A stretch of 32,000 bases of DNA, taken from Promethearchaeota archaeon. Its GTDB lineage: Archaea > Asgardarchaeota > Lokiarchaeia > Sigyniarchaeales > Promethearchaeaceae. Below are positions 1-17,973 of the stretch, one piece after another (positions within the stretch are counted from its first letter, which is position 1; each line of letters starts with the position of its first letter). The notes below the pieces were generated by a model, which saw nothing but the letters and a program-made list of their open reading frames with translations, was not told where the DNA came from and ran no database searches. The DNA lies in contig JAFGBS010000014.1 of the NCBI GenBank assembly GCA_016933055.1, positions 1 through 32,000 of the forward strand, read 5' to 3'. The position numbers and the translations under genes were made by a program.

Positions 1-857
1 GAGGCTTCGAGAAATCAACTTCTTAGTATAGGCTGGAAAAAAGAAGCGGATAAGCTTTTATCAGCTATTAATATGTATGAAAATTTCTATCAAAAGGATG
101 TTCTAGATAGAAAGAAGCTCCAGCTAATAGAAAAAATGGATGAACAGGAGAAAAAACGATTGCAAGAAACTATTCGTCTGCAAAAAGAAGAAGACGAACT
201 AAAGGAAATGGAACGGCTAAAAAAATTAACAGAAATAGAAAAAAAGAAAGCTTTAGAGGAGGAAATCAGCAAACAAGTATTTAAACAGATAGAAGAAATT
301 GAAAAGGAAGTAAAAGAATATAATGAACACCCTATAAATGAGAAAATCACTAGTGCAAGCCCCTATTTGCGTGCAAAAAATATATATCAGTCCGCTCGAG
401 ATGAGTTACTGAAGATTGGGTGGAAAATTGAAGCAGACAAATTGCTAACACCCATTTCAATGTATGAAAATCTCCATCATAAAGATCAAATGGAACGAGA
501 AAAACTTCATTTGATAAAGAAAAAGCAGATGGAAGAACAAAAAAAACTAGAAGAATCAATACGATCACAAACAGAAGAAGTAGAACGAAGAGAACAGGAA
601 AAACGACAGAAGTTAGAAGAGATAAGCAAAAAGAAAGAACAAGAAGACCAAATAAGCAAAGTCACATTCCAAGCGATTGAAGATATTGAAAAAGAAGTTA
701 AATTCTATAAGGAACACGCACTTGCAGAGCATTACGCTTTGGACTGTCCGTATTTGAGAGCTAAGAATGTATATGAGGCTTCGAGAAATCAACTTCTTAG
801 TATAGGCTGGAAAAAAGAAGCGGATAAGCTTTTATCAGCTATTAATATGTATGAAAA
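1..857 (+). repeat. Exact 83-nt intragenic direct repeat (copies at 1-83 and 775-857, offset 774 nt = 2 x 129 codons)
   Basis: The sequence from gaggcttcgagaaatcaac to attaatatgtatgaaaa is identical at both loci and diverges abruptly afterwards. Confidence 0.95.
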
Positions 858-3800
858 ATTGCTCTATACAGATGAAATAGAGCGAGGAAAATTCCTTGAA
901 AAACAAGAAAAAGAGAAAGAAGAGAAAAGAAAATTATACGAGTCTATTCAAATACAAAAAGAAGAACGAGAACGACAAGAACGAGAACGAATACGCGCAC
1001 TTAGGGAGCAAGAATTACAAAAACAACACGAAACAGACGTAAGTGAGAAAGCGTTTCAATTAATTGAAGATATTGAGAAAGACGTTACACATTATAGAGA
1101 GCGAGTGAAGATAGAAAACTATCATCTACCCTGCCCTTATGATCGAGCTATAGAAGTCTATAAAACTGCTCAGAAGATGCTCATGGAAATAGGCTGGAAA
1201 AAGGAAGCGGATAAACTCACCAATAGTATACGCGTATATGATAGATTATCTAATGAAGATTTGGAAATTCGGAACAAATTCAAAGCGAAATTAGAAAAAG
1301 AAAAAGAAGCAGAAAGAGAACTGCAGGAAACCATTCAAAGAGAAAAGGAACGTCTTTTATTGGAAGAAGAAAAAAGAAAAAGCGAATTGGAAAAATTTGA
1401 TAAGAAAAAAAGGGAAACCGAACAACTGCAGCAATCTGCATATGAAAAATTAGAAGCAGGAAACCGTTATATTCAAGAAAAAGAGTTTGACAAAGCTTCT
1501 GAAGAACTACAAGAAGCACTTAAACTCTTCAAGAAGATCAAATGGAAATCCGGTATTAAATTAACCGAAAATGCAATAAAATATAAGGAAAATGAACAAG
1601 AGAAATTTGAGCGTTTACTCCAGCACGAACGTCTCGCTTTGCAAGAAAAAGTGAAGAAAGAGCAAGAATTCCAAGAATTCTTAGAGGAACAAAGAAGAAT
1701 TAAAGATCAAGAAGAGCAGAATAGGAAATTGGAATTATTACGCATTGAAATGGCAAGTAAAAAAGTAAGTGAACAACAAGAAAGTGCATTCAATAAATTA
1801 GAAGAGGGAAATGATCTTGTTAAAATCCGTGAATTTGATAAAGCAAATAAACTCTACTTAGAAGCATTGAGCATTTTCCAAGATATTGGTTGGGTAGATG
1901 GTGTAGAGAAAACTAAACAATCTATTTCTCATAATCTAATTGAACAAGAACGCTATAAGCAACATCTGGAATTTCAGAAAAAGCAAGAACAAGAAAGACA
2001 AAAAGAAGAGCAAGAGTTAAACGAATTAATAAGAAAGAGGCAGGAATTAACACAATTGGAAGAACAAAAAAAGCGATTACAAATCGAACAGCAACATGAA
2101 CAAGCTGAGAAAATTAAACAAAGACAACAAGAAGCGCTTGAATTACTAGAACAAGGTAATGAAAAAACCACCCAAAATCTATTTGATGAAGCGGAAAAGG
2201 ACTTCAATCATGCGATGACAATATTCCAAGAAATAAAATGGAGTCATGGGATTAAGATCACCGAAGAAGTACTGAAACACAATGCTGAAGAAAGAAGTAG
2301 ATTCTTACAATTACAAAAGAGAGATGAAAAAGCACGCCTTGAGCAAATTAAGCAACAAAAAGAATTGGAACAGATGTTAGCTAAACAAAAATTAACGGCT
2401 CAACAGGAGGCACGACTAAAAGAGTTACAACAAGCTCAAGAAACGGAGAAAAAATTCCAAATTCAATCTATGCAAGAAGAAGCTATGCTATATTTAGAAA
2501 AAGGTAACGAAGCGATACAAATTAAGAAGTTCAATCAGGCTAATGCGCTTTTTGCTTCTGCTATGAAGATCTTCCAAGAAATGGGATGGCAAAAAGGAAT
2601 TGAAATGACGAATAGTGCCTTAGATTACAACCAAAAAGAATTGTTAAAATTCGAAAATGAAAGACTGCGAGAAGAGCAAAAGAAGCAAGAAGCTTTAAGA
2701 AGGCAAGAAGAAATTAACCAACTTATCAAGGAATCAAAAGCAGAAGAAATACAGAAGCAACTTGAATGGAAAAAGAAGTTGGAAGAGAAAACACAGCGTA
2801 TTGACGAAGAAAATAGCATAAAAGATCAAATTTTTGCACTACTTGAGAGAGGAAGTAAGCTTGCTGCGAAAAATGAATTTCTCTCTGCAATTGAGTTATA
2901 TAAAAAGACTATACCCCTATTTGAGAAAATCTCTTGGCCACTAAAACGGGATCAAGTAATTGATCTTATTGACTCTACTCAACAGGATTATGATAACTAT
3001 CGCAAGCATTTGGCAAAAGAGGAAGCAATACGGAAAAAACAGGCTGAAGAAGAAGAACAAATGAGATTGCTGATCCAAAGTGAACAAGAGAAGGAAAAAG
3101 CACGCCAGAAACTTATCCAACAGCAGCAATTTGAGCAGCAAGAACGTGATAAACGGAATGAAGAATTACGAAAAGAAGCGGCAGAAGAAATCAATAAGGC
3201 AAGCGTGATGCTAGAACGGCGAAAATTTGAAAACGCTATAGAAAGCTTGAATATTGCTCTTTCAAATTTCAAAAAACTCGGTTGGGATAAAGAGGCAAAA
3301 GTTACCGAAGAAAGAATTGCTGAAGTGAACAAGCAAAGACGAGAAACCTACAAACCCATTGATCGTGAAGAATCAGCGAGTGATATGGAAATTTCTGAAC
3401 AAGGGTATGGCCAAATAGAAGAGGCAGATAAATTCATACGACAAAAAAAATATCGAAAAGCACTTCCCTACTTAGAGGAGGCTGCACGATTGTTTGAAAA
3501 AATTCAGTGGACCAAAGCTATTAAGATGGTTGAACGTCGAATTCGTGAAACGGAAAAATTAATCACAGAAAAAGAGGAACTAATTGAAAAATTACGTTCT
3601 CGTCGCTCTCGAAAAACAGAAAAAGAAGCATACCAGCTTTTGGAAAAAGTAGATAAATTTCGACGAGAAAATCATTATGATTATGCATTAACTTCTGCAA
3701 AAGAAGCTCAAAGAATATTCCAGGATTTGAAATGGGAAAAAGAAGCAGCTGAATTAGATAAATTGATTCATACTATTGAAAAGGAGAATGAGGAACAGAA

Positions 3801-3939
3801 AGTAGTACGGACCCAGGAACAAAGCGAAAGAATGGAAAAAATTAAGGTAGAGGAAGAAGAAGAAAGAAAGATTCAAGAAATAATCGAGGAGAGACGAAGA
3901 AGGAGGAGAGAGACCCGCCAGAAACTCAAGGATGAATAA
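1..3939 (+). CDS. Giant (>1312 aa, 5'-truncated by the window) E/K/Q/R-rich tandem-repeat protein: TPR-like helical hairpins separated by charged helical or coiled-coil linkers
   Basis: Frame +1 is open from base 1 (EASRNQLLSIGWKKEADKLLSAINMYEN), so the ATG at 73 is internal. Twelve Trp-anchored units (W codons at 34, 421, 808, 1195, 1543, 1891, 2239, 2587, 2935, 3283, 3508, 3733). Stop TAA at 3937-3939. Confidence 0.85.
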   Translation, partial: EASRNQLLSIGWKKEADKLLSAINMYENFYQKDVLDRKKLQLIEKMDEQEKKRLQETIRLQKEEDELKEMERLKKLTEIEKKKALEEEISKQVFKQIEEIEKEVKEYNEHPINEKITSASPYLRAKNIYQSARDELLKIGWKIEADKLLTPISMYENLHHKDQMEREKLHLIKKKQMEEQKKLEESIRSQTEEVERREQEKRQKLEEISKKKEQEDQISKVTFQAIEDIEKEVKFYKEHALAEHYALDCPYLRAKNVYEASRNQLLSIGWKKEADKLLSAINMYEKLLYTDEIERGKFLEKQEKEKEEKRKLYESIQIQKEERERQERERIRALREQELQKQHETDVSEKAFQLIEDIEKDVTHYRERVKIENYHLPCPYDRAIEVYKTAQKMLMEIGWKKEADKLTNSIRVYDRLSNEDLEIRNKFKAKLEKEKEAERELQETIQREKERLLLEEEKRKSELEKFDKKKRETEQLQQSAYEKLEAGNRYIQEKEFDKASEELQEALKLFKKIKWKSGIKLTENAIKYKENEQEKFERLLQHERLALQEKVKKEQEFQEFLEEQRRIKDQEEQNRKLELLRIEMASKKVSEQQESAFNKLEEGNDLVKIREFDKANKLYLEALSIFQDIGWVDGVEKTKQSISHNLIEQERYKQHLEFQKKQEQERQKEEQELNELIRKRQELTQLEEQKKRLQIEQQHEQAEKIKQRQQEALELLEQGNEKTTQNLFDEAEKDFNHAMTIFQEIKWSHGIKITEEVLKHNAEERSRFLQLQKRDEKARLEQIKQQKELEQMLAKQKLTAQQEARLKELQQAQETEKKFQIQSMQEEAMLYLEKGNEAIQIKKFNQANALFASAMKIFQEMGWQKGIEMTNSALDYNQKELLKFENERLREEQKKQEALRRQEEINQLIKESKAEEIQKQLEWKKKLEEKTQRIDEENSIKDQIFALLERGSKLAAKNEFLSAIELYKKTIPLFEKISWPLKRDQVIDLIDSTQQDYDNYRKHLAKEEAIRKKQAEEEEQMRLLIQSEQEKEKARQKLIQQQQFEQQERDKRNEELRKEAAEEINKASVMLERRKFENAIESLNIALSNFKKLGWDKEAKVTEERIAEVNKQRRETYKPIDREESASDMEISEQGYGQIEEADKFIRQKKYRKALPYLEEAARLFEKIQWTKAIKMVERRIRETEKLITEKEELIEKLRSRRSRKTEKEAYQLLEKVDKFRRENHYDYALTSAKEAQRIFQDLKWEKEAAELDKLIHTIEKENEEQKVVRTQEQSERMEKIKVEEEEERKIQEIIEERRRRRRETRQKLKDE

Positions 3940-4107
3940 TTAATTGTCCTTATTGCCTTTCTCTATTGGGATTACTAATTCATTTCGTATAAGATCTCGA
4001 ATAGCAACCCTTATAGCTTCAGATCTGCTGGGAAAGTGTCCATCATCAACTAATGATTCTAACGCCGTTAAATATCGTTCTGGTATATGAACAGTGATCA
4101 TTTTCAT
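3940..4107 (-). CDS. CopG/Arc/MetJ ribbon-helix-helix transcriptional regulator (55 aa), CdrS-like
   Basis: Not in the ORF track. Manual translation gives MKMITVHIPERYLTALESLVDDGHFPSRSEAIRVAIRDLIRNELVIPIEKGNKDN: alternating beta-strand ITVHI plus the FPSRSEAIR helix-2 motif. SD-like GAGGA lies upstream on the minus strand. Confidence 0.85.
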   Translation of the reverse strand: MKMITVHIPERYLTALESLVDDGHFPSRSEAIRVAIRDLIRNELVIPIEKGNKDN

Positions 4108-4296: not shown

Positions 4297-4617
4297 ATGA
4301 AAGAACAACTTCAAAAACACCTTAAAGATGGTGAACCGTGGGAAAAAATGATTACGGATATTCCAGGGGTTTTTATTGTCCGAGTTCCTGGACCAAAAAC
4401 TAATCCCAAAAATGCACGATTAATGCTTGAGATCAATCCTGTGGATGAGGATGGAAAACCCAAAAAAAGAAAAGGATTATTTTTATCTGATCGAGAAACC
4501 TACATTCAGTATTTTGAATTACTTAGTGATGACCGAATCAATAAAATTCTACTGACTTTAGAAGAAGTAAATCCGAAAAATCAGTCCAAATCGATGAAGA
4601 AACTAAAAATTGAATAA
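4297..4617 (+). CDS. Hypothetical protein, 106 aa
   Basis: Clean ORF with globular-looking composition (PGVFIVRVP, LEINP, KKRKGLF). No family recognised with certainty. Confidence 0.7.
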   Translation: MKEQLQKHLKDGEPWEKMITDIPGVFIVRVPGPKTNPKNARLMLEINPVDEDGKPKKRKGLFLSDRETYIQYFELLSDDRINKILLTLEEVNPKNQSKSMKKLKIE

Positions 4618-5986: not shown

Positions 5987-7624
5987 TTATTTTAATATTC
6001 CTTCTTCAATTAAATCCAATACACGAGACAATACATCCGATTCTGATATATAACCATCCCAAGTTTTAGATAGTTGAACAAGAATTTGATCAATAGTCAT
6101 CATAGATTCTTTTCGTACGGTTTCGACTATTAAACTCTCCAGTGTAGTCAACAATGCCTTTTTCTGATTGTAAACTACATCAGATAATGTGAATATACGA
6201 TCATAAGGGATATTCTCCGGAAAAGGATTGAAATATTGATAGAATAATTTATCTATGTGTGGTTTTATTCCCATAAGATCGATAACTCGTTGTTCGAACA
6301 CATCCTTGAATTCATTTTCAATTACTTGGATGAATTCTTTGGTTTTTTGAAGGTAAATTTTTTCAGGATGCTTTTTGAACCGTAGTATTGTCTTGACACC
6401 TGAGTTACCAGTTCCAATAATCGCATGCAAATTCCCAAAATCTAAATAATCCACTTCTTGTATTTTCTTAAATCGTAAAAATCGATCACGTACTATTTCC
6501 ATAGTTTGCATTAAACCAGAGAAAATCGTTATTTCATTTGAATCGCTTTTTGTACGGGTATATAAATGCCTTCCTATATGAAGAATAATGAGATCTTGTA
6601 AATTATCATAAGTTATATATTCAGAATTAGGATTGTGATATGAAATACTTTCAATTTGATTATTTCGTTTCAATATTGCTAATATTTTCTTACTTTCAAC
6701 GATAGAATTGCCTAATGCTAAAAGATTAACCAGATTGGGTTCAAAATTCATTTGAAGGCATTTCTTTATTTGCTCATTGGATTCTTGAGTTAAAATATCT
6801 AATTCTTCCTTGGGGAGATCATCCAGATTAATACTTTGTTCCCAAAATTCCATTAAGGTTTTCGATTCAGAATTATTTAATCCCCAAATCAACTCCAACG
6901 AACGTCTTGTAATAGTGAATTTATTTAAATGTTCAAATTCAGTGAGGTAATATATTCCTAGTTCAATCGAATAATGTTCCTCTTTCATGTCGTTAAGATG
7001 ATGGTGTAATTTTGACAACATTCTATCGATTGTTAAAGGACTATATTCCTTAGGAACCCATTTTTTTGAGCATTCTAAAAGCTCCGGTAACCTCCGAAAA
7101 AAAATACTTTCATTTTCCGTCTCATTTATATCAAAATAAAAGGTGTTAATCCCAAACACTTTGTTAAAGAGTTTTTTTAGATGTAGGTTGTAAAAGAATT
7201 TACTAAGTTCCCTGCGAGGAGTATCACCATTATAATTCATCCCGATTAGAAGTAATGGTATATATGACCTTCGGATTTGGCTGATTTTCGAAAAAAATTC
7301 CTTGCATTCATCAGAAAGAGTGATATTTGTATTATCACACACCATAATGATAGCATCTGCTTCTCGAAATTCCTTTTTGGGAGTTATTATCGTAGAAAGA
7401 AGCAATGGTTGTATCAAATAAATTCGTAATTTATATTTGCACTGTCCAAGCAACTTCTTACGAGTAAATTTCTCATTGGGAAATTCGAAATATACTAAGG
7501 CAGTTTTCCCAGGTGTAGATTGGAATCCTAAATAGTTTCGAAACTTCGATACAGCTTCTTGATCCCCACACAGCAAGATATTATAGGAGTCCATTTTACT
7601 CATAGTACTTTCTAAATATCTCAT
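5987..7624 (-). CDS. Multidomain protein: degenerate small-GTPase-like N-terminal domain, longin-like domain and probable C-terminal winged helix
   Basis: N-terminal pattern NILLCGD...FREADAIIMVCD...IPLLLIG follows the Rab/Roc fold with G1, G3 and G4 motifs lost. Residues ~342-450 (LIILHIGRHLY...IFSGLMQTM...IQEVDYLDFGN...FIQVIENEF) fit a longin-like pattern. Ends with LDLIEEGILK. The start may be 7603 or 7594. Confidence 0.6.
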   Translation of the reverse strand: MRYLESTMSKMDSYNILLCGDQEAVSKFRNYLGFQSTPGKTALVYFEFPNEKFTRKKLLGQCKYKLRIYLIQPLLLSTIITPKKEFREADAIIMVCDNTNITLSDECKEFFSKISQIRRSYIPLLLIGMNYNGDTPRRELSKFFYNLHLKKLFNKVFGINTFYFDINETENESIFFRRLPELLECSKKWVPKEYSPLTIDRMLSKLHHHLNDMKEEHYSIELGIYYLTEFEHLNKFTITRRSLELIWGLNNSESKTLMEFWEQSINLDDLPKEELDILTQESNEQIKKCLQMNFEPNLVNLLALGNSIVESKKILAILKRNNQIESISYHNPNSEYITYDNLQDLIILHIGRHLYTRTKSDSNEITIFSGLMQTMEIVRDRFLRFKKIQEVDYLDFGNLHAIIGTGNSGVKTILRFKKHPEKIYLQKTKEFIQVIENEFKDVFEQRVIDLMGIKPHIDKLFYQYFNPFPENIPYDRIFTLSDVVYNQKKALLTTLESLIVETVRKESMMTIDQILVQLSKTWDGYISESDVLSRVLDLIEEGILK

Positions 7625-11006: not shown

Positions 11007-12593
11007 ATGCAAGACTTGCTAAACGTGGGAATCGATTCCATTGGATTTTATGCACCACGGTTCTATATCGAATTGGAGGAATTAGCAAAAGCACGCAAAG
11101 TATCCCCAAATAAATATAAAGAGGGATTACTCCTTAAAGAACTTCGATTTACGGATATAGGTGAGGACATAATATCTCTCGGATTCCATGCAGCAAGAAT
11201 TGCACTTCAAAGAGGAAATATTAACTCCCAAGAAATTGATGGTGTGTTTGTCGGAACAGAAACGGAAACTTATGCAGCGAAATCAATTTCCAATATATTT
11301 ACTGAACTATTGGATATTCCTCCTAATTGTTTAACCCAAGATATTATGAATACATGCGCATCAGGTACCTTAGCTATATTAGATGCAATCTCTCTCGTGG
11401 AATTAAGAATTGTAACTAAAGCCTTAGTCATAATTACGGATATATCGAATTATGAAAAACATAGTGCGGGAGAGCCAACACAAGGAGCTGGTGCGGTTGC
11501 ACTAGTTATTTCAAAGAATCCCCGGATTGCTTCCTTTTCCCGATCTTTCGGGAAAGTGTCTGGAAATGTGGATGATTTCTTTCGCCCAAAAGGTAATAAA
11601 AATGCTCAAGTATTTGGAAAATATTCTGTTCAATCCTATTTAAACCTCCAAATGAAAGCTTATGAGAATCTTGAAAATCAAATTGGTGACATCAATGCAG
11701 ATTACTTCATTTTTCATGGTCCTTATGCACGATTACCCTTAAAATTGATGTATAAACTAATTTCTAAAAATTGGCTTTATCGCATTGAAAAAAAGATAAG
11801 TAAATATACACCCTTTCCAAATTCGGATATATTAGATCGTATATTCAGCAATGTATCAATAGTACCTGATTTTATTGTGAACAAATTAGCGGAGATTACT
11901 GCAAATTCTGAGGAATTTGAATCAATTAAGATGCGACTGCGGGATGTGATCAAAAACACAGTTTTACCTCAACTACATATTCCTATGTATTTTGGTAATA
12001 TGTATTCAGCCTCATTATGGGCTCAGTTGCAATATTTGCTCGAAACGGCATTAAAACCAAATGATTATGTATATTTCGGATCCTATGGTTCTGGGGCAAC
12101 CTGTATATCGGGATTAATTAAAATAAATGAGAGATATTCTGAAGTAATTAGGAATCCCCCCACAGTTCGGGATATTATGACTAATAAAGTGAAGAAATCC
12201 ATTCCTGAATATGAAGAGATTAAATACAATCAACTTAAACCAGAATTAGTATGGGCGAAAATACAATCACTAGAGGATCATCCAGGCTATACTCTTCGGT
12301 ATTGCGATAAAGGTTGCTTGTTATCACCAATTCAAGGCATAGAATATTGTCCAAAAGGACATAGTGGAATCAATACATTATATTTTCCCATTTATGCAAC
12401 TTTAATAACTATTATAAAGCCTTTTGATCAAAATGATTTAAGTCCATTGAAGGATGGTCTTGTTCTACTGATTGGAAAACCCCATATAGGTTCTACCTTA
12501 GAATTTGAATTAAGACGTACCCAATCAAATGAAGAAGGTAGTGAAGCAAAAGGATTATTGAATTGGATACCGATTTATAATGCAAATATTTAG
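11007..12593 (+). CDS. mvaS: HMG-CoA synthase (MvaS-like) with a fused C-terminal DUF35-like Zn-ribbon/OB-fold domain
   Basis: VGIDSIGFYAP, catalytic triad E85 (GTETE), C117 (NTCASG), H237 (FHGPY); GEPTQGAGAVA, GNMYSASL, FGSYGSGA. About 120 extra C-terminal residues with C433-x3-C-x10-C-x3-H and IGSTLEFELRR...GLLNW. Confidence 0.9.
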   Translation: MQDLLNVGIDSIGFYAPRFYIELEELAKARKVSPNKYKEGLLLKELRFTDIGEDIISLGFHAARIALQRGNINSQEIDGVFVGTETETYAAKSISNIFTELLDIPPNCLTQDIMNTCASGTLAILDAISLVELRIVTKALVIITDISNYEKHSAGEPTQGAGAVALVISKNPRIASFSRSFGKVSGNVDDFFRPKGNKNAQVFGKYSVQSYLNLQMKAYENLENQIGDINADYFIFHGPYARLPLKLMYKLISKNWLYRIEKKISKYTPFPNSDILDRIFSNVSIVPDFIVNKLAEITANSEEFESIKMRLRDVIKNTVLPQLHIPMYFGNMYSASLWAQLQYLLETALKPNDYVYFGSYGSGATCISGLIKINERYSEVIRNPPTVRDIMTNKVKKSIPEYEEIKYNQLKPELVWAKIQSLEDHPGYTLRYCDKGCLLSPIQGIEYCPKGHSGINTLYFPIYATLITIIKPFDQNDLSPLKDGLVLLIGKPHIGSTLEFELRRTQSNEEGSEAKGLLNWIPIYNANI

Positions 12594-13779
12594 GCACTCT
12601 CCGATTTTTAATCAATTGAAGCAAGATTATCAAGATATAATACACTATTTGGAAGAAAATCACTATCACATAGAACCTGTCCCAACATATCAAACGGCTA
12701 ATTATGATTTCGGAGAAGAATGCGCTATTGCATTCCCAATTCAAGGTCTATTAAAATATCATGGAATGTTAGATTCCTATGAGAGAATTGCGCTGTTCCC
12801 CAGTATATCCCTTAATAATGATGCGTTCTATACCGTTACTTACCTCAAATTTGATCCTGATTTGATCGAGGACATATTTTATTTAAACGGTAAAGTACAA
12901 TCCCACAACAATGAATATGAACGAGTAAAATTCCAATTAAACAAGATTCGGAACCATGCTGGAGTTCAAAGTAAAGCATTTATTATATCAAGGAATTTTA
13001 CTAGAACTGATTCTGCACAATTATCAGGAAAAGGATTGGGAACATCAGCGGCTGGAGGTGCCGCAATAGCCCGAGCTGCGTTTTCGATTCTATATAAGGA
13101 TAAAATATATGCAAACAATTCTCGGTTACAAAGTGTTTTTTCTCGATATCTATCTGGTTCAGCTGCAAGAAGCAGCGTAGGTGGTTTTGCATTATGGATG
13201 AGTAAACCTGATAGAGAAACATGGAATAGTTATGCAATACGTTTAGATACTCCTGAATATGAGGATTTTATTAATACAATCTCACTTATTTCCATCCCTT
13301 TTAGTTCCTCCTTTAGTACTTCTTTAGCTCATAGACTTGCTCCAAGTTCTCCTTTTTACCAAAAATGGTGTTTATCACGTAAAGAAAAGATATTCAAATT
13401 TCTTCAAGCGTTTCAAGATCGGGATTTTAAGATTATAGGAGAATTAGCTGAAGAGGATTCCAGAATTTTACATCAAATTAGTAATACAGCAGATTTTGGA
13501 CTTACGTATTGGAACGATAAAACAAGAGAATTAATGAATTACGCTGATCAGATGAAAAAAAAAGGTATCCCTGTTTATTATACAATAGATACTGGCCCCT
13601 CCGTAGTATTTCTCACTCAAAAAAAATATGAAGATCAAATAATTCAAGACTTACATCTCCAATTTAAATTATCTTCAAAAATATTTAGGGGATCTGTAGC
13701 CGGACCAAGCAAATTAATTCCACCAAATTCTAATTTAATTCACCTATTGGATGATGACTTTGAAAAATTCAGCTCCTAG
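12580..13779 (+). CDS. mvaD: GHMP-family mevalonate decarboxylase, haloarchaeal/Chloroflexi-type phosphomevalonate decarboxylase
   Basis: AFPIQGLLKYHG (haloarchaeal PMD has AHPIQGLVKYHG), GLGTSAAGGAA, SGSAARS, PVYYTIDTGPSV. Overlaps the mvaS stop by 14 nt. Confidence 0.85.
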   Translation: MQIFRHSPIFNQLKQDYQDIIHYLEENHYHIEPVPTYQTANYDFGEECAIAFPIQGLLKYHGMLDSYERIALFPSISLNNDAFYTVTYLKFDPDLIEDIFYLNGKVQSHNNEYERVKFQLNKIRNHAGVQSKAFIISRNFTRTDSAQLSGKGLGTSAAGGAAIARAAFSILYKDKIYANNSRLQSVFSRYLSGSAARSSVGGFALWMSKPDRETWNSYAIRLDTPEYEDFINTISLISIPFSSSFSTSLAHRLAPSSPFYQKWCLSRKEKIFKFLQAFQDRDFKIIGELAEEDSRILHQISNTADFGLTYWNDKTRELMNYADQMKKKGIPVYYTIDTGPSVVFLTQKKYEDQIIQDLHLQFKLSSKIFRGSVAGPSKLIPPNSNLIHLLDDDFEKFSS

Positions 13780-14926
13780 TTCGCGACTACCTGGTTTTCA
13801 TAATCTTTCCATCAAGGAACGACAAGAAATTATAAAGAAATTATCAGGTTTAACTAATGAAGAAATAGATCAATTAAATAACTTCGGAAATCTGGGAATG
13901 GAGTTAGGAATTAAATTTTCAGAAAATGTTATTGGAGGATACACCTTACCAATTTCAATTGCTACTAATTTTCAAATTAATTCGAAGGATTACCTTGTTC
14001 CCATGGTCACGGAGGAATCCTCTGTTGTTGCAGCAGCATCTTATGGTGCTAAATTAGCTCGAAAATATGGAGGTTTTGTTTGTGATCCTTTAGAAAATCT
14101 AATGATCGGTCAACTGCAGATTTTACTGGAAAAACGAGATGACATCGAAAATTTTATCCGACCATTAAAATCAGAATTCCTAAGGAAAATCAACGAACAA
14201 CACTCTACTTTATCATCAGTGGGAGGGGGTGCGAAAGAACTAAGATTTAGAAAAATACAATCTAGCCGGGGTGGAATGGGTATTCTTGAATTGGAAGTTG
14301 ATGTGGTGGATGCAATGGGAGCAAATATTGTTAATTCTATGATGGAAACCCTTGGAAAACTACTACAAAGGAAATATCATGAAAAAATCCGTGCAAAAAT
14401 AGTTTCTAATCTCGCCATAGGTCGAATATGCAAATGTAAAGCAATTTTTGATACAGAAGAAATGGGAAGAGATGTAGCACATAAATTAGTAGATATCTAC
14501 GCATTTGCTGAAGCAGATCCATACCGTGCTGTGACCCACAATAAAGGTATAATGAATGGAATTATTGCATTAGCATTAGCAACAGGGAATGATACACGTG
14601 CTTTAGAAGCAGCTGCTCATGGATATGCTTCAATTGATGGAAAATATAGACCTTTAAGTCGATTTTATTTAAATGAAGAAGGAAATTTAGTTGGATCTAT
14701 ATCAGTTCCCTTACCTATGGGTATTATAGGTGGAATCACATCTATGAATCCCGTATCTAGAATTGCCTTAAAAATTTTGGGCATTTCCACCGCTACAGAA
14801 TTAATACAAATCGCAAGTGCGGTGGGTTTGGCTCAGAATATTTCCGCCCTTAGGGCACTTGCCGACGAAGGCATCCAAAAATCTCACATGCGATTGCATG
14901 CACGAAAATTTGAAAATAGAAGATGA
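13751..14926 (+). CDS. mvaA: HMG-CoA reductase, class II
   Basis: SRLPGFHNLS, ENVIG, PMVTEESSVVAAAS, DAMGAN, THNKGIMNG, GNDTRALEA, GIQKSHMRLHAR. Confidence 0.95.
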   Translation: MMTLKNSAPSSRLPGFHNLSIKERQEIIKKLSGLTNEEIDQLNNFGNLGMELGIKFSENVIGGYTLPISIATNFQINSKDYLVPMVTEESSVVAAASYGAKLARKYGGFVCDPLENLMIGQLQILLEKRDDIENFIRPLKSEFLRKINEQHSTLSSVGGGAKELRFRKIQSSRGGMGILELEVDVVDAMGANIVNSMMETLGKLLQRKYHEKIRAKIVSNLAIGRICKCKAIFDTEEMGRDVAHKLVDIYAFAEADPYRAVTHNKGIMNGIIALALATGNDTRALEAAAHGYASIDGKYRPLSRFYLNEEGNLVGSISVPLPMGIIGGITSMNPVSRIALKILGISTATELIQIASAVGLAQNISALRALADEGIQKSHMRLHARKFENRR

Positions 14927-14930
14927 GACG

Positions 14931-15875
14931 ATGATTATTGCATCAGCACCCGGAAAATGTATATTACTTGGAGAACATGCAGTGGTGTACGGATATCCAG
15001 CCGTTGCAGTTGCGTTAAACATTCGATCTTATTGCTCAATTCATAGAATCTCTGAAAAATACATTCATTTTAATTTACCAGACCAATCTTTTGACATAAT
15101 ATGTGAAAATTTAGAACAATTACTAAAATCAATCCCTCAAAAATACCTACAATTTCCTCAAGTACTAGTTAGTCTATCTAAGCGATTTAATTTCAAAGTT
15201 TCTAACATATCAATCCAAATTCAATCAAATTTATGGAGAGGAGCGGGATTAGGCTCATCAGCATCAACATCAATAGCTTTCTTATTTGCCATCTTTCATC
15301 TATACAGAGTGGATAAAAAATTCATACCTGAATTTGCATTCATGATGGAGAAATATGTCCATGGAACACCATCTGGAATTGATAATAGTGTTTGTTATTG
15401 GGGGGGTACCTTAGTTTTTCAAGAGAAAATAAGAGAGAAATTCACGATTCCTAAATTTCCTATGTTGATCACGCATTCAGGAACTACTCATAATACCGGA
15501 AATATTGTTAGAGAAATAAAAAATAGCTCTTCTTCTATGAAAAAATCATTCTCGGAAATTGGACAGATAGTTCAAGAAGGATTAAACGTGCTAAAACTGG
15601 CAGACCTTGTGCGTTTAGGTGAACTGTTTAATAAAAATCATGATATTTTGTCAACAATGGGAGTTTCAACAGAAGATATCGAAATTATTCGAACAATAGC
15701 CTTAACAAACGGTGCTTATGGCTCCAAAGTCACAGGAGCGGGAGGGGGAGGATGTGTGATTTCATTAGGGGAGTTGAATAATTTAAAAAAAATCAAATCC
15801 ATCCTTCATCTCAGAGGATATATCAGCAAAATATCTTACGTGGATTATAATGGTGGTAGAATTGAATCAGAATAG
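14931..15875 (+). CDS. mvk: Mevalonate kinase
   Basis: ASAPGKCILLGEHAVVYG, GAGLGSSAS, HGTPSGID, SKVTGAGGGG. The start is placed at ATG 14931, 4 nt after the mvaA stop; the ORF-track start at 14817 lies inside mvaA. Confidence 0.95.
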   Translation: MIIASAPGKCILLGEHAVVYGYPAVAVALNIRSYCSIHRISEKYIHFNLPDQSFDIICENLEQLLKSIPQKYLQFPQVLVSLSKRFNFKVSNISIQIQSNLWRGAGLGSSASTSIAFLFAIFHLYRVDKKFIPEFAFMMEKYVHGTPSGIDNSVCYWGGTLVFQEKIREKFTIPKFPMLITHSGTTHNTGNIVREIKNSSSSMKKSFSEIGQIVQEGLNVLKLADLVRLGELFNKNHDILSTMGVSTEDIEIIRTIALTNGAYGSKVTGAGGGGCVISLGELNNLKKIKSILHLRGYISKISYVDYNGGRIESE

Positions 15876-16839: not shown

Positions 16840-17973
16840 ATGTTTGATTTTGAAGAAGAAGAAGAATATCGGGATGAAACGGATACAGGAGATGAAGCAG
16901 AGCAATACGATGCATTTCGAGAGGAAGACATCGCCGCCGAAAAAGAAATTGTAGCAGAGGGAAAAGATTACACCTTAATTGAAGTTGATTTGTGGGCAAC
17001 CTCCCTCCATGATGCAAAAATAGGTATTCGTCAAGATGCACAGTACCAATCAAAATCTCGACAGTTCACAAAAACATCAGAAGTTATTGGAAATGTTGTG
17101 TTTCACACTGGATGGGATGAAAATCGTCAAAAAGAGAATTATGAGGAAGTTATAACTATAGATCAAGAGTTTTGGGATATTGGAAAAAAATCCAAAATTA
17201 TGCAAATAGTCCAAGATCGGTATTCTGATTATGATCCCAAAAAATTTGCCCGTATGATGCGAAAATTAGTTATTAAGACTTTTGTAGATTTGGGTCGTAA
17301 ACAAGAAGAACGGATGCGAGGAAGATGGACTGGTAGTTTTGAAGAATCCCAAGTAATGTCGTTAGTTATGACATTCGGAGATCGAAGAAGGCGTAATCCC
17401 CTACCGTTCTTTTATGTAGATATTCCAGGTTTTAAATATCGAGTGCCAGTGACACGGGTTCACACAATAATTGGAGATCGATATGTATTTCCAATGATTG
17501 ATGATGAAACCAACTCAGTAGTACCTTATTTAATAGAAGAAAGACGATTTACTTTCGGTCAAGACTATCAGCTATTTGATGGAAGGACAATGAAAAAAAT
17601 TGCCGTAATTAATGATGTTGCGATAAATATTGGAGGCAAAGTTAATATCAAATTCAAAAAGCCAAAGATTGATAAAAATGGGGAATTAATTGATCCTTGG
17701 GAACATTTAAGGAGAAATTATGTATTTCAACGTATAATTATTTTGTTTGCTGCAAGTTTAAACTATTTTCATTCAATTTATCGGCAATACCGACGAGTCC
17801 ATCGTGCAATGAAGACTTTACGGAGTTATCAGAAAGACAAGGGAAAGCTTTCTCTTATGGAACAAGAAGAAAAGTACCGACAAGCCAAAAAGAAGATGAG
17901 AATCCTGAAGTGGTACCCTGTATGGGCAAAAGAGTTATCACTTCATTATAATCCACGCAGAGTTAGAACATAA
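16840..17973 (+). CDS. Hypothetical protein with an acidic N-terminus, a possible LURP-one/Tubby-C-like beta-rich domain and a basic C-terminus
   Basis: 377-aa ORF; N-terminal EEEEEYRDETD. The segment EERRFTFGQDYQLFD...KKIAVINDVAINIGGKVNIKF...RIIILFAASL resembles the LURP-one pattern by eye. Confidence 0.6.
   Translation: MFDFEEEEEYRDETDTGDEAEQYDAFREEDIAAEKEIVAEGKDYTLIEVDLWATSLHDAKIGIRQDAQYQSKSRQFTKTSEVIGNVVFHTGWDENRQKENYEEVITIDQEFWDIGKKSKIMQIVQDRYSDYDPKKFARMMRKLVIKTFVDLGRKQEERMRGRWTGSFEESQVMSLVMTFGDRRRRNPLPFFYVDIPGFKYRVPVTRVHTIIGDRYVFPMIDDETNSVVPYLIEERRFTFGQDYQLFDGRTMKKIAVINDVAINIGGKVNIKFKKPKIDKNGELIDPWEHLRRNYVFQRIIILFAASLNYFHSIYRQYRRVHRAMKTLRSYQKDKGKLSLMEQEEKYRQAKKKMRILKWYPVWAKELSLHYNPRRVRT

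Follow-up and report, generated by a model that had tools for sequence, protein, structure and literature searches.

A predicted beaded helical rod protein with quantised unit lengths in one order of Lokiarchaeia

The window analyzed here comprises the first 32,000 nucleotides (nt) of a contig (C22; GenBank JAFGBS010000014.1) from the genome assembly of a Promethearchaeota archaeon (GCA_016933055.1; 3.76 Mb, 36 contigs, 91% complete), and its first 3,939 nt (1–3939, plus strand) hold the C-terminal 1,312 codons and the stop codon of a giant repeat-protein gene, referred to below as the rod gene. Reading frame 1 is open from base 1 until the stop codon at 3937–3939 and encodes 1,312 amino acids (aa; P0001), the open reading frame (ORF) being 5'-open at the contig end. 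The complete product is probably a beaded helical rod of ∼1,858 aa in which geometry rather than exact sequence is under selection, and any specific cellular role is less probable than this structural and selective reading taken as a whole. No paper on this family or on this architecture in Asgard archaea was found in the literature.

The repeat structure of the ORF is marked by anchor tryptophans (Trp) at aa 12, 141, 270, 399, 515, 631, 747, 863, 979, 1095, 1170, and 1245, which leave three intervals of 129 aa, six of 116 aa, and two of 75 aa, and the corresponding codon spacings (387, 348, and 225 nt), reported in a first-pass annotation of the DNA, were reproduced from the translation. The anchor of a profile hidden Markov model of the module falls on precisely those 12 Trp residues of the ORF, and the single non-anchor Trp (aa 923) lies within a linker. 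P0001 consists of 18.8% Glu, 14.3% Lys, 9.3% Gln, and 7.2% Arg, and its 10 Pro and 19 Gly residues are almost all located within or adjoining the modules; this scarcity of Pro and Gly, the motif around the Trp of the 116-aa units, and the terminal EEEEERK…ERRRRRRE sequence were all found as the first-pass annotation had given them. The protein has no hydrophobic stretch (maximum Kyte-Doolittle 19-residue mean 0.64) and, judged from its sequence, is predicted to be soluble and cytoplasmic. Tandem Repeats Finder detected no long period in the DNA, and identity among units at the DNA level (66–76%) is kept only by the 129-type units. The modules of the 116-type units are only 19–39% identical to one another, with no detectable DNA similarity, in keeping with the strong divergence among units noted earlier. 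The periodicity is neither chance nor a recent DNA repeat, and the observation is confirmed.

The start of the window is a contig end at which the rod gene has been broken by the assembly, and the expectation that the protein continues 5' beyond the window was borne out when an N-terminal piece of 494 codons was located on contig C16 (C16:2–1483, minus strand). The anchors of this piece lie at positions 72, 188, 300, and 429, giving spacings of 116, 112, and 129 aa, of which the 112-aa interval falls outside the three period classes and speaks against complete uniformity. The last 38 nt of the reverse complement of C16 are identical to C22:582–619, and the first 83 nt of the window (C22:1–83) are identical to C22:775–857, which places the break in repeats and identifies the 83-nt stretch as the repeat that broke the assembly. 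In a contig of a relative (L034), one gene lies between both flanks, with the C16 side upstream (GH35, GH57, a UPF0182 gene, and a small ORF) and the C22 side downstream (a ribbon-helix-helix gene, a 106-aa ORF, L13, S9, DUF255, UPP synthase, and HMG-CoA synthase), and its module spacings are 116, 112, 129 five times, 116 six times, 75, and 75. Because the C16 and C22 pieces align gap-free to the L034 gene and leave exactly 156 nt (∼52 aa) uncovered, a full length of ∼1,858 aa is indicated, and synteny suggests that the two pieces form one gene with 16 modules. The L034 rod gene carries one frameshift, and other genes of that assembly are split too; the frameshift-split genes (L034 13690–13735 and elsewhere) comprise the rod gene, S9, and UPF0182, and look like the product of an error-prone assembly rather than real pseudogenes.

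Selection on length and geometry, which the first-pass annotation had proposed, is supported by comparison with the ortholog, since the alignment extends over 1,818 aa at 54–66% identity with 0 gaps although synonymous sites are saturated (proportion of synonymous differences, pS, 0.82). As a control, eight neighboring genes on the same two contigs (56–83% identity) contain 18 gap openings in 4,154 positions, so that ∼8 gaps would be expected in the rod gene against the 0 observed (Poisson P ∼4e-4). Nonsynonymous divergence (dN) is 0.22 in the modules and 0.29 in the linkers. In a paralogous group of 2,120-aa proteins, pairs at 52–68% identity show 0–2 gap openings in 2,121 aa, and a spacing vector common to all members (113, 118 or 119, 116, 116, 116, 117, 114, and so on) is retained. 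A survey of unit length in 143 representatives at ≤50% identity (974 intervals) gives a sharp mode at 116 aa (221 of the 974), with 44% of the intervals at 113–119 aa, 14% at 126–132 aa, 10% at 72–80 aa, and about 10% each at 101–112 and 120–125 aa; the lengths cluster at 116, 127–130, and 75–78 aa, and the free variation that was looked for as a refutation was not seen. In the proposed check of whether homologs keep the 116/129 period, same-family orthologs were found to preserve the 116- and 75-aa lengths, but their long units measure 127 or 130 aa instead of 129; these orthologs also contain a 153-aa unit and vary from 5 to 13 in their number of long units. Unit lengths are therefore quantised and position-specific but not universal, and copy number shifts by whole units. 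Differences between unit classes by whole helical turns (+7, +11, +14, and +18 residues) were also considered; some peaks are suggestive, but offsets of 1–3 residues occur frequently and some of the 13 aa by which the 129- and 116-aa units differ belong to a loop, and the idea was rejected.

An alignment of the units resolves the three periods further. The distance from the anchor Trp to the next helix A is 81 aa in the 129- and 116-aa units and 40 aa in the 75-aa units, and the extra 13 aa of the 129-aa units sit inside the module, which has a longer helix A and an 11-residue loop usually ending in CPY. All three periods therefore follow from modules of 67 or 54 aa joined to linkers of 62 or 21 aa, namely 67 + 62 = 129, 54 + 62 = 116, and 54 + 21 = 75 aa. 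On the plus strand of the window, the first long-type module (1–81, Trp aa 12) is cut by the contig end and is followed by three complete 67-aa long-type modules, the first of which (268–468, Trp aa 141) comprises helix A, an 11-residue loop ending in PY, helix B, and the start of helix C, while the other two (655–855, Trp aa 270; 1042–1242, Trp aa 399) bear the CPY loop motif. Four 62-aa charged linkers follow these modules (82–267, 469–654, 856–1041, and 1243–1428; span 82–1428), and each is predicted to lie inside one 98-residue helix. Standard modules of 54 aa, each with one TPR motif and the start of a third helix, are located at 1429–1590 (Trp aa 515), 1777–1938 (Trp aa 631), 2125–2286 (Trp aa 747), 2473–2634 (Trp aa 863), 2821–2982 (Trp aa 979), and 3169–3330 (Trp aa 1095). 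The five 62-aa linkers of the 116-aa units (1591–1776, 1939–2124, 2287–2472, 2635–2820, and 2983–3168; span 1591–3168) are free of Pro and Gly, and each is predicted to form the middle of one 93-residue helix. The 21-aa linker of the first 75-aa unit (3331–3393) contains Pro 1119 and an acidic Ser-rich stretch, and Gly 1135 and Gly 1137 open the module after it (3394–3555, Trp aa 1170), so that this linker may be a hinge and not a rigid helix. The linker of the second 75-aa unit (3556–3618, 21 aa) leads to the last standard module (3619–3780, Trp aa 1245) and then to a charged C-terminal tail of 52 aa with an EEEEE run and an RRRRRR run (3781–3936), which is conserved in the ortholog.

Structure prediction of two to three units agrees with an extended beaded rod, and neither disorder nor compact packing is predicted. 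The AlphaFold2 model of aa 470–767 (146 aligned homologous rows; predicted local distance difference test, pLDDT, 96) contains helices at 2–23, 27–43, 47–139, 143–160, 163–255, 259–275, and 279–297, and that of a 129-type stretch (aa 215–424; pLDDT 95.2) has helices at 2–25, 37–53, 57–154, 166–182, and 186–209. In the models, each unit comprises helices A and B followed by a continuous helix of 93 or 98 residues, which begins as the third helix of its knob and finishes as the next knob's helix A, so that the linker is an uninterrupted helix in both models, as expected from the earlier description of an amphipathic hairpin followed by a helical spacer. Superposition on compact TPR proteins gives root-mean-square deviations of 45–100 Å, whereas single knobs superpose on three-helix bundles at 1.2–2.5 Å, and a Foldseek search of the PDB with the three-module model returned no match at E ≤ 0.001, only local TPR or MIT rows with very large global deviations. 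From the ideal rise of a helix rather than from model coordinates, the knobs would be spaced ∼11–12 nm apart (∼5 nm in the short units) and the whole molecule would span ∼0.16–0.18 micrometre.

Pro and Gly are absent at unit positions 14–87 across 147 homologous 116-aa units, and the linkers of P0001 are 42–63% charged (∼52% overall), ∼20% strongly hydrophobic, and 11% Gln. Residue pairs of opposite charge are over-represented at i+3 (1.27-fold) and i+4 (1.25-fold), and pairs of like charge are under-represented there (0.72-fold and 0.60-fold, respectively). The best heptad a/d occupancy of the linkers (0.29–0.47) equals the shuffle expectation, and the hydrophobicity profile taken over the whole family shows no significant signal at a period of 3.5 or 3.6 residues. 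The first-pass annotation had left a choice between single alpha-helix and coiled coil for these E/K/R/Q-rich, Pro/Gly-poor spacers; because opposite charges are enriched at i+3 and i+4 and no heptad signal is seen, the pattern favors the charged single alpha-helix (SAH, or ER/K helix). The linkers have the sequence features of that class, being Pro/Gly-free and E/K/R-dominated with an i/i+4 pattern and no hydrophobic seam, and lack the heptad hydrophobic periodicity of a canonical coiled coil. ER/K single helices act as rigid spacers, and those of myosin VI, myosin X, and caldesmon resemble the rod linkers in their lack of Pro and Gly, their richness in E/K/R, and their i+3/i+4 bias, as well as in forming long isolated helices as predicted here. 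The rod helices differ from them in being interrupted at strict intervals by folded knobs and in their charge of only ∼52%, which is at the low end of the SAH class, textbook ER/K helices being more charged and less hydrophobic.

It has also to be considered that the linkers pair between chains, by parallel or antiparallel coiled coils or by knob-on-helix contacts, and that dimers, filaments, or a mesh would then form a skeleton of the intermediate-filament or spectrin type. The strongly hydrophobic fifth of the linker residues occupies positions conserved across the 147 units, and linker sequence is conserved in orthologs (59% identity, dN 0.29) beyond what the keeping of length needs, both of which such pairing would explain. 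However, no heptad or 3.5-residue signal rises above shuffles in single linkers or in the family profile, the hydrophobic positions are not on one helical face, the charge pattern is of the intrahelical type, and the monomer models are confident without a partner; pairing between chains is regarded as unlikely, if still deserving of attention. A two-copy complex prediction of aa 470–767 scored 0.00, a result that bears neither way on self-association.

The identity of the knob was approached by profile and structure comparison. The TPR-like hairpin proposed from the letters is upheld by sub-threshold Pfam matches to TPR_2 and TPR_11 on the modules (E 6e-4 to 7e-2, from searches with P0001 and its single modules) and by a profile of 148 modules. 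In the PDB this profile scores 16–21 bits per motif on designed consensus TPR proteins and finds the natural TPR proteins RPAP3, TOM70, and HOP with E values between 1e-7 and 1e-5, whereas calpain-7 MIT reaches only 1.3e-3. NCBIfam and a whole-protein phmmer search against PDB sequences gave no matches, and the best score of a feature-based search of the ESM Atlas was 0.88, to unnamed bacterial clusters and TPR clusters that serve as leads only. Helices A and B of the rod module carry the TPR signature (PF00515 and PF07719), and each module corresponds to a single TPR motif. Canonical TPR motifs recur at 34-aa intervals and stack into a superhelix whose groove binds ligands, but in the rod each motif is solitary, with one further helix as a cap and a helical spacer of 62 or 21 aa before the next motif, so that no groove of three or more repeats is possible; with motifs 75, 116, or 129 aa apart and isolated knobs in the models, a canonical TPR domain is not formed. 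The knob is thus placed by its sequence in the TPR clan and would be MIT-like in shape, and P0001 does not itself classify as an MIT protein.

A distinctly improbable alternative, although some results across the family point that way, is that the knobs work as MIT domains and make the protein a multivalent ESCRT-III binder, which would array many MIM-binding (MIT-interacting motif) sites on ESCRT-III polymers while membranes are remodeled in Asgard cells. Pfam MIT (PF04212) is matched by 60 of the 148 single modules of the family (41%) at E ≤ 0.01 (best 4e-8), and the whole paralogs P0004 and P0019 score 108.9 and 72.5 bits against a gathering cut-off of 30. The MIT domains of Vps4, katanin, MITD1, and calpain-7 are three-helix TPR-like bundles of ∼60–70 aa, as the rod knob is predicted to be, and the knobs fit the MIT chains 2w2u_B, 5lb7_B, and 4a5x_B (archaeal Vps4, katanin, and MITD1) at 1.7–2.5 Å with Z scores of 9.2–9.6; designed bundles and TPR fragments score equally, however, and Z values below ∼13, including the 9–11 found here, are non-specific for helical folds. 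In addition, P0001 yields no MIT match at E ≤ 1 and its single modules yield none at E ≤ 0.1, and the module profile fits TPR proteins much more closely than it does any MIT chain. In enzymes and adaptors, MIT domains are terminal and number one or two, whereas 12 to 21 knobs are distributed along the rods of this family. Neither ESCRT nor cytoskeletal genes were present in the rod-family neighborhoods examined, and no conserved surface residues were seen on the modules.

Among known elongated proteins, the spectrin-repeat rods of spectrin, alpha-actinin, dystrophin, and plakins have a period of ∼106–122 aa and consist of three-helix bundles in which the last helix of one repeat carries on into the first helix of its successor. 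The plakin fragment of plectin (spectrin repeats, PF00435) superposes on one rod knob at 1.2 Å over 72 residues, but P0001 has no Pfam spectrin match at E ≤ 1 and is not assigned to the spectrin family. All spectrin helices are ∼30 residues long and the bundles abut, whereas the bundle helices of the rod are 17–22 residues long and ∼50 residues of each connecting helix would be bare (predicted helices of 22, 17, and 93 residues). Staphylococcal Ebh is a giant surface-anchored bacterial protein that likewise forms a long rod, from a ∼126-aa helical repeat; its repeats are two packed helix bundles with no bare single-helix spacers. We know of no sequence relation between Ebh and the rod protein.

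Hardly tenable is the proposal that the exact spacing is a relic of tandem duplication without selective meaning, with too little time for insertions and deletions (indels) to accumulate in a generic low-complexity helical filler: the DNA identity that the 129-type units still share, long equal-length runs in relatives (e.g., 127 twelve times) such as recent amplification predicts, and long-unit copy numbers that differ between genera (5, 7, and 13 intervals) would suit it, but the 116-type modules have diverged to 19–39% identity and beyond DNA similarity, the ortholog alignment is gap-free at saturated synonymous sites whereas neighboring genes have gaps, members of the paralog family from different genera keep their lengths position by position, and dN is far below the saturated synonymous divergence.

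Several points weigh against the beaded rod with selected geometry. Units of 101–112 and 120–125 aa exist, so the constraint is not one universal number, and since units and orthologs are related by descent, the counts and z-scores overstate independence. The predicted template modeling score is only 0.55, which makes the relative orientation and placement of the knobs unreliable, and a high pLDDT of the long helix is no proof of a stable monomeric single helix in solution. Strong hydrophobics (∼20%) stand at conserved linker positions and could mediate oligomerisation or partner binding. The module columns conserved in the family are those of the core only, and because no conserved polar surface patch was seen, there is no positive sign of a shared ligand site.

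Under the beaded-rod reading, each module would pair one TPR motif (helices A and B) with the opening turns of a third helix, which close it into a small three-helix knob, and this third helix would run on for 93–98 residues, through an E/K/R/Q-rich, Pro/Gly-free segment with intrahelical salt-bridge patterning, and become helix A of the next knob. One residue inserted in such a continuous helix would rotate everything downstream by ∼100 degrees, and indels would for this reason be purged while substitutions accumulate. The best inference as to function is a scaffold or spacer of fixed geometry that would offer small, equivalent knobs for docking at defined distances and phases. The results themselves show the periodicity, the prediction of knobs on long helices, the intolerance of indels, the distribution of the family, and its kinship with the TPR clan; rigidity as a monomeric single helix, the dimensions given above, and a scaffold or ruler function are what we infer for this protein.

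In the genomes searched, the family occurs in a single order. A two-linker profile matched 74 of the 75 other genomes of one order (f1, 6 of 6; f2, 68 of 69) and none of 226 genomes from the 28 other families of the phylum. Among 1.84 billion representatives searched by profile, 131 clusters (50% identity) reached E ≤ 1e-30, the longest protein having 2,927 aa, and the named homologs all come from Promethearchaeota or Lokiarchaeota metagenome-assembled genomes, which agrees with the Asgard-like origin that had been surmised from the DNA alone. A whole-protein query with P0001 against the genome contigs confirmed no related locus. The genome that holds the rod gene also encodes smaller paralogs, including a 632-aa protein encoded 13 kb past the window (C22:45074–46969, minus strand) with five modules spaced 106, 103, 124, and 116 aa apart, and further module-bearing ORFs on C24, C35, C27, and C28, that on C28 having its modules at the end of a 1,157-aa ORF. 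In f2, paralogs of 2,122 and 1,641 aa (loci L031, L032, and L033) lie elsewhere, in a conserved block with a RACo-type protein, a ThiF (E1-like) protein, and two small GTPases of the Arf/Ras/Roc type, to which one lineage adds an E2 (UQ_con) gene.

A recurrent neighborhood accompanies the rod gene and consists of a divergent UPF0182 gene, an ORF of 108–136 aa, the rod gene, a convergent ribbon-helix-helix (RHH) gene, and an ORF of 106–113 aa. In the window, the RHH gene (3940–4107, minus strand; 55 aa, CopG-type, PF01402 at E 7e-9) abuts the rod stop codon, and a convergent RHH gene adjoins rod relatives on four further contigs (L034, L035, L036, and L037). At the other end of the gene (locus L030), the gene for a 1,068-aa multi-pass membrane protein of the UPF0182 family (PF03699; C16:2152–5358, plus strand) and the rod gene are transcribed away from each other; the protein begins with a Cys-rich segment that resembles a zinc ribbon and has a cytoplasmic stretch that is charged, and its synteny with the rod gene is found in four genomes of the same family (its own included) and on one more distant contig and is absent from another. 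Just upstream of the rod gene and on the same strand lies a 136-aa ORF (C16:1611–2021, minus strand) with only weak winged-helix matches (E 0.016–0.06), and ORFs of 108–136 aa occupy the equivalent upstream position in L034, L035, L036, and L037. Downstream, a 106-aa ORF (4297–4617, plus strand) belongs to no Pfam family, is 71% identical in the ortholog contig, and by ESM Atlas features resembles archaeal hypothetical proteins of ∼109 aa from several phyla (score 0.92). It was considered as a partner of the rod and rejected, being a member of a widespread archaeal family directly upstream of ribosomal-protein genes, with which it may belong rather than with the rod gene.

Beyond this locus, the window contains ordinary archaeal housekeeping genes, including those for ribosomal proteins, the mevalonate pathway, a split RpoA, aIF2-alpha, NurA, and CTP synthase. 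The mevalonate cluster (11007–15875, plus strand) encodes a 528-aa HMG-CoA synthase-like protein with a thiolase-N match, a protein resembling diphosphomevalonate decarboxylase or mevalonate-3-kinase, HMG-CoA reductase, and a GHMP kinase, and is preceded by UPP synthase and a DUF255 thioredoxin-like protein. Two further ORFs have no Pfam family, one of 545 aa (5987–7624, minus strand; 71% identity in the ortholog contig) and one of 377 aa (16840–17973, plus strand).

Asgard archaea are examined for clues to how eukaryotic cell architecture originated, and few structural proteins are known in their cells beyond homologs of actin, tubulin, and ESCRT. The predicted architecture of this large unannotated family, together with its unusually clear intolerance of indels, makes it a candidate cytoplasmic ruler, spacer, or elastic scaffold, and the family provides a natural example of a principle of protein engineering, in which rigid helical spacers are placed between small binding modules. 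More speculatively, and with little likelihood, the proteins could be phase-calibrated rulers or cross-linkers of one Lokiarchaeia order whose knobs dock on a periodic polymer, a lattice, or a membrane-anchored partner, for which Lokiactin filaments, Asgard tubulin, ESCRT-III polymers, or the UPF0182 neighbor would be candidates; the rods would then govern spacing or stiffness within the cell body or its long protrusions, and the three unit classes would be interchangeable spacer lengths that tune the geometry. If a partner is found, the spacing of 11–12 nm should show in cryo-tomograms.

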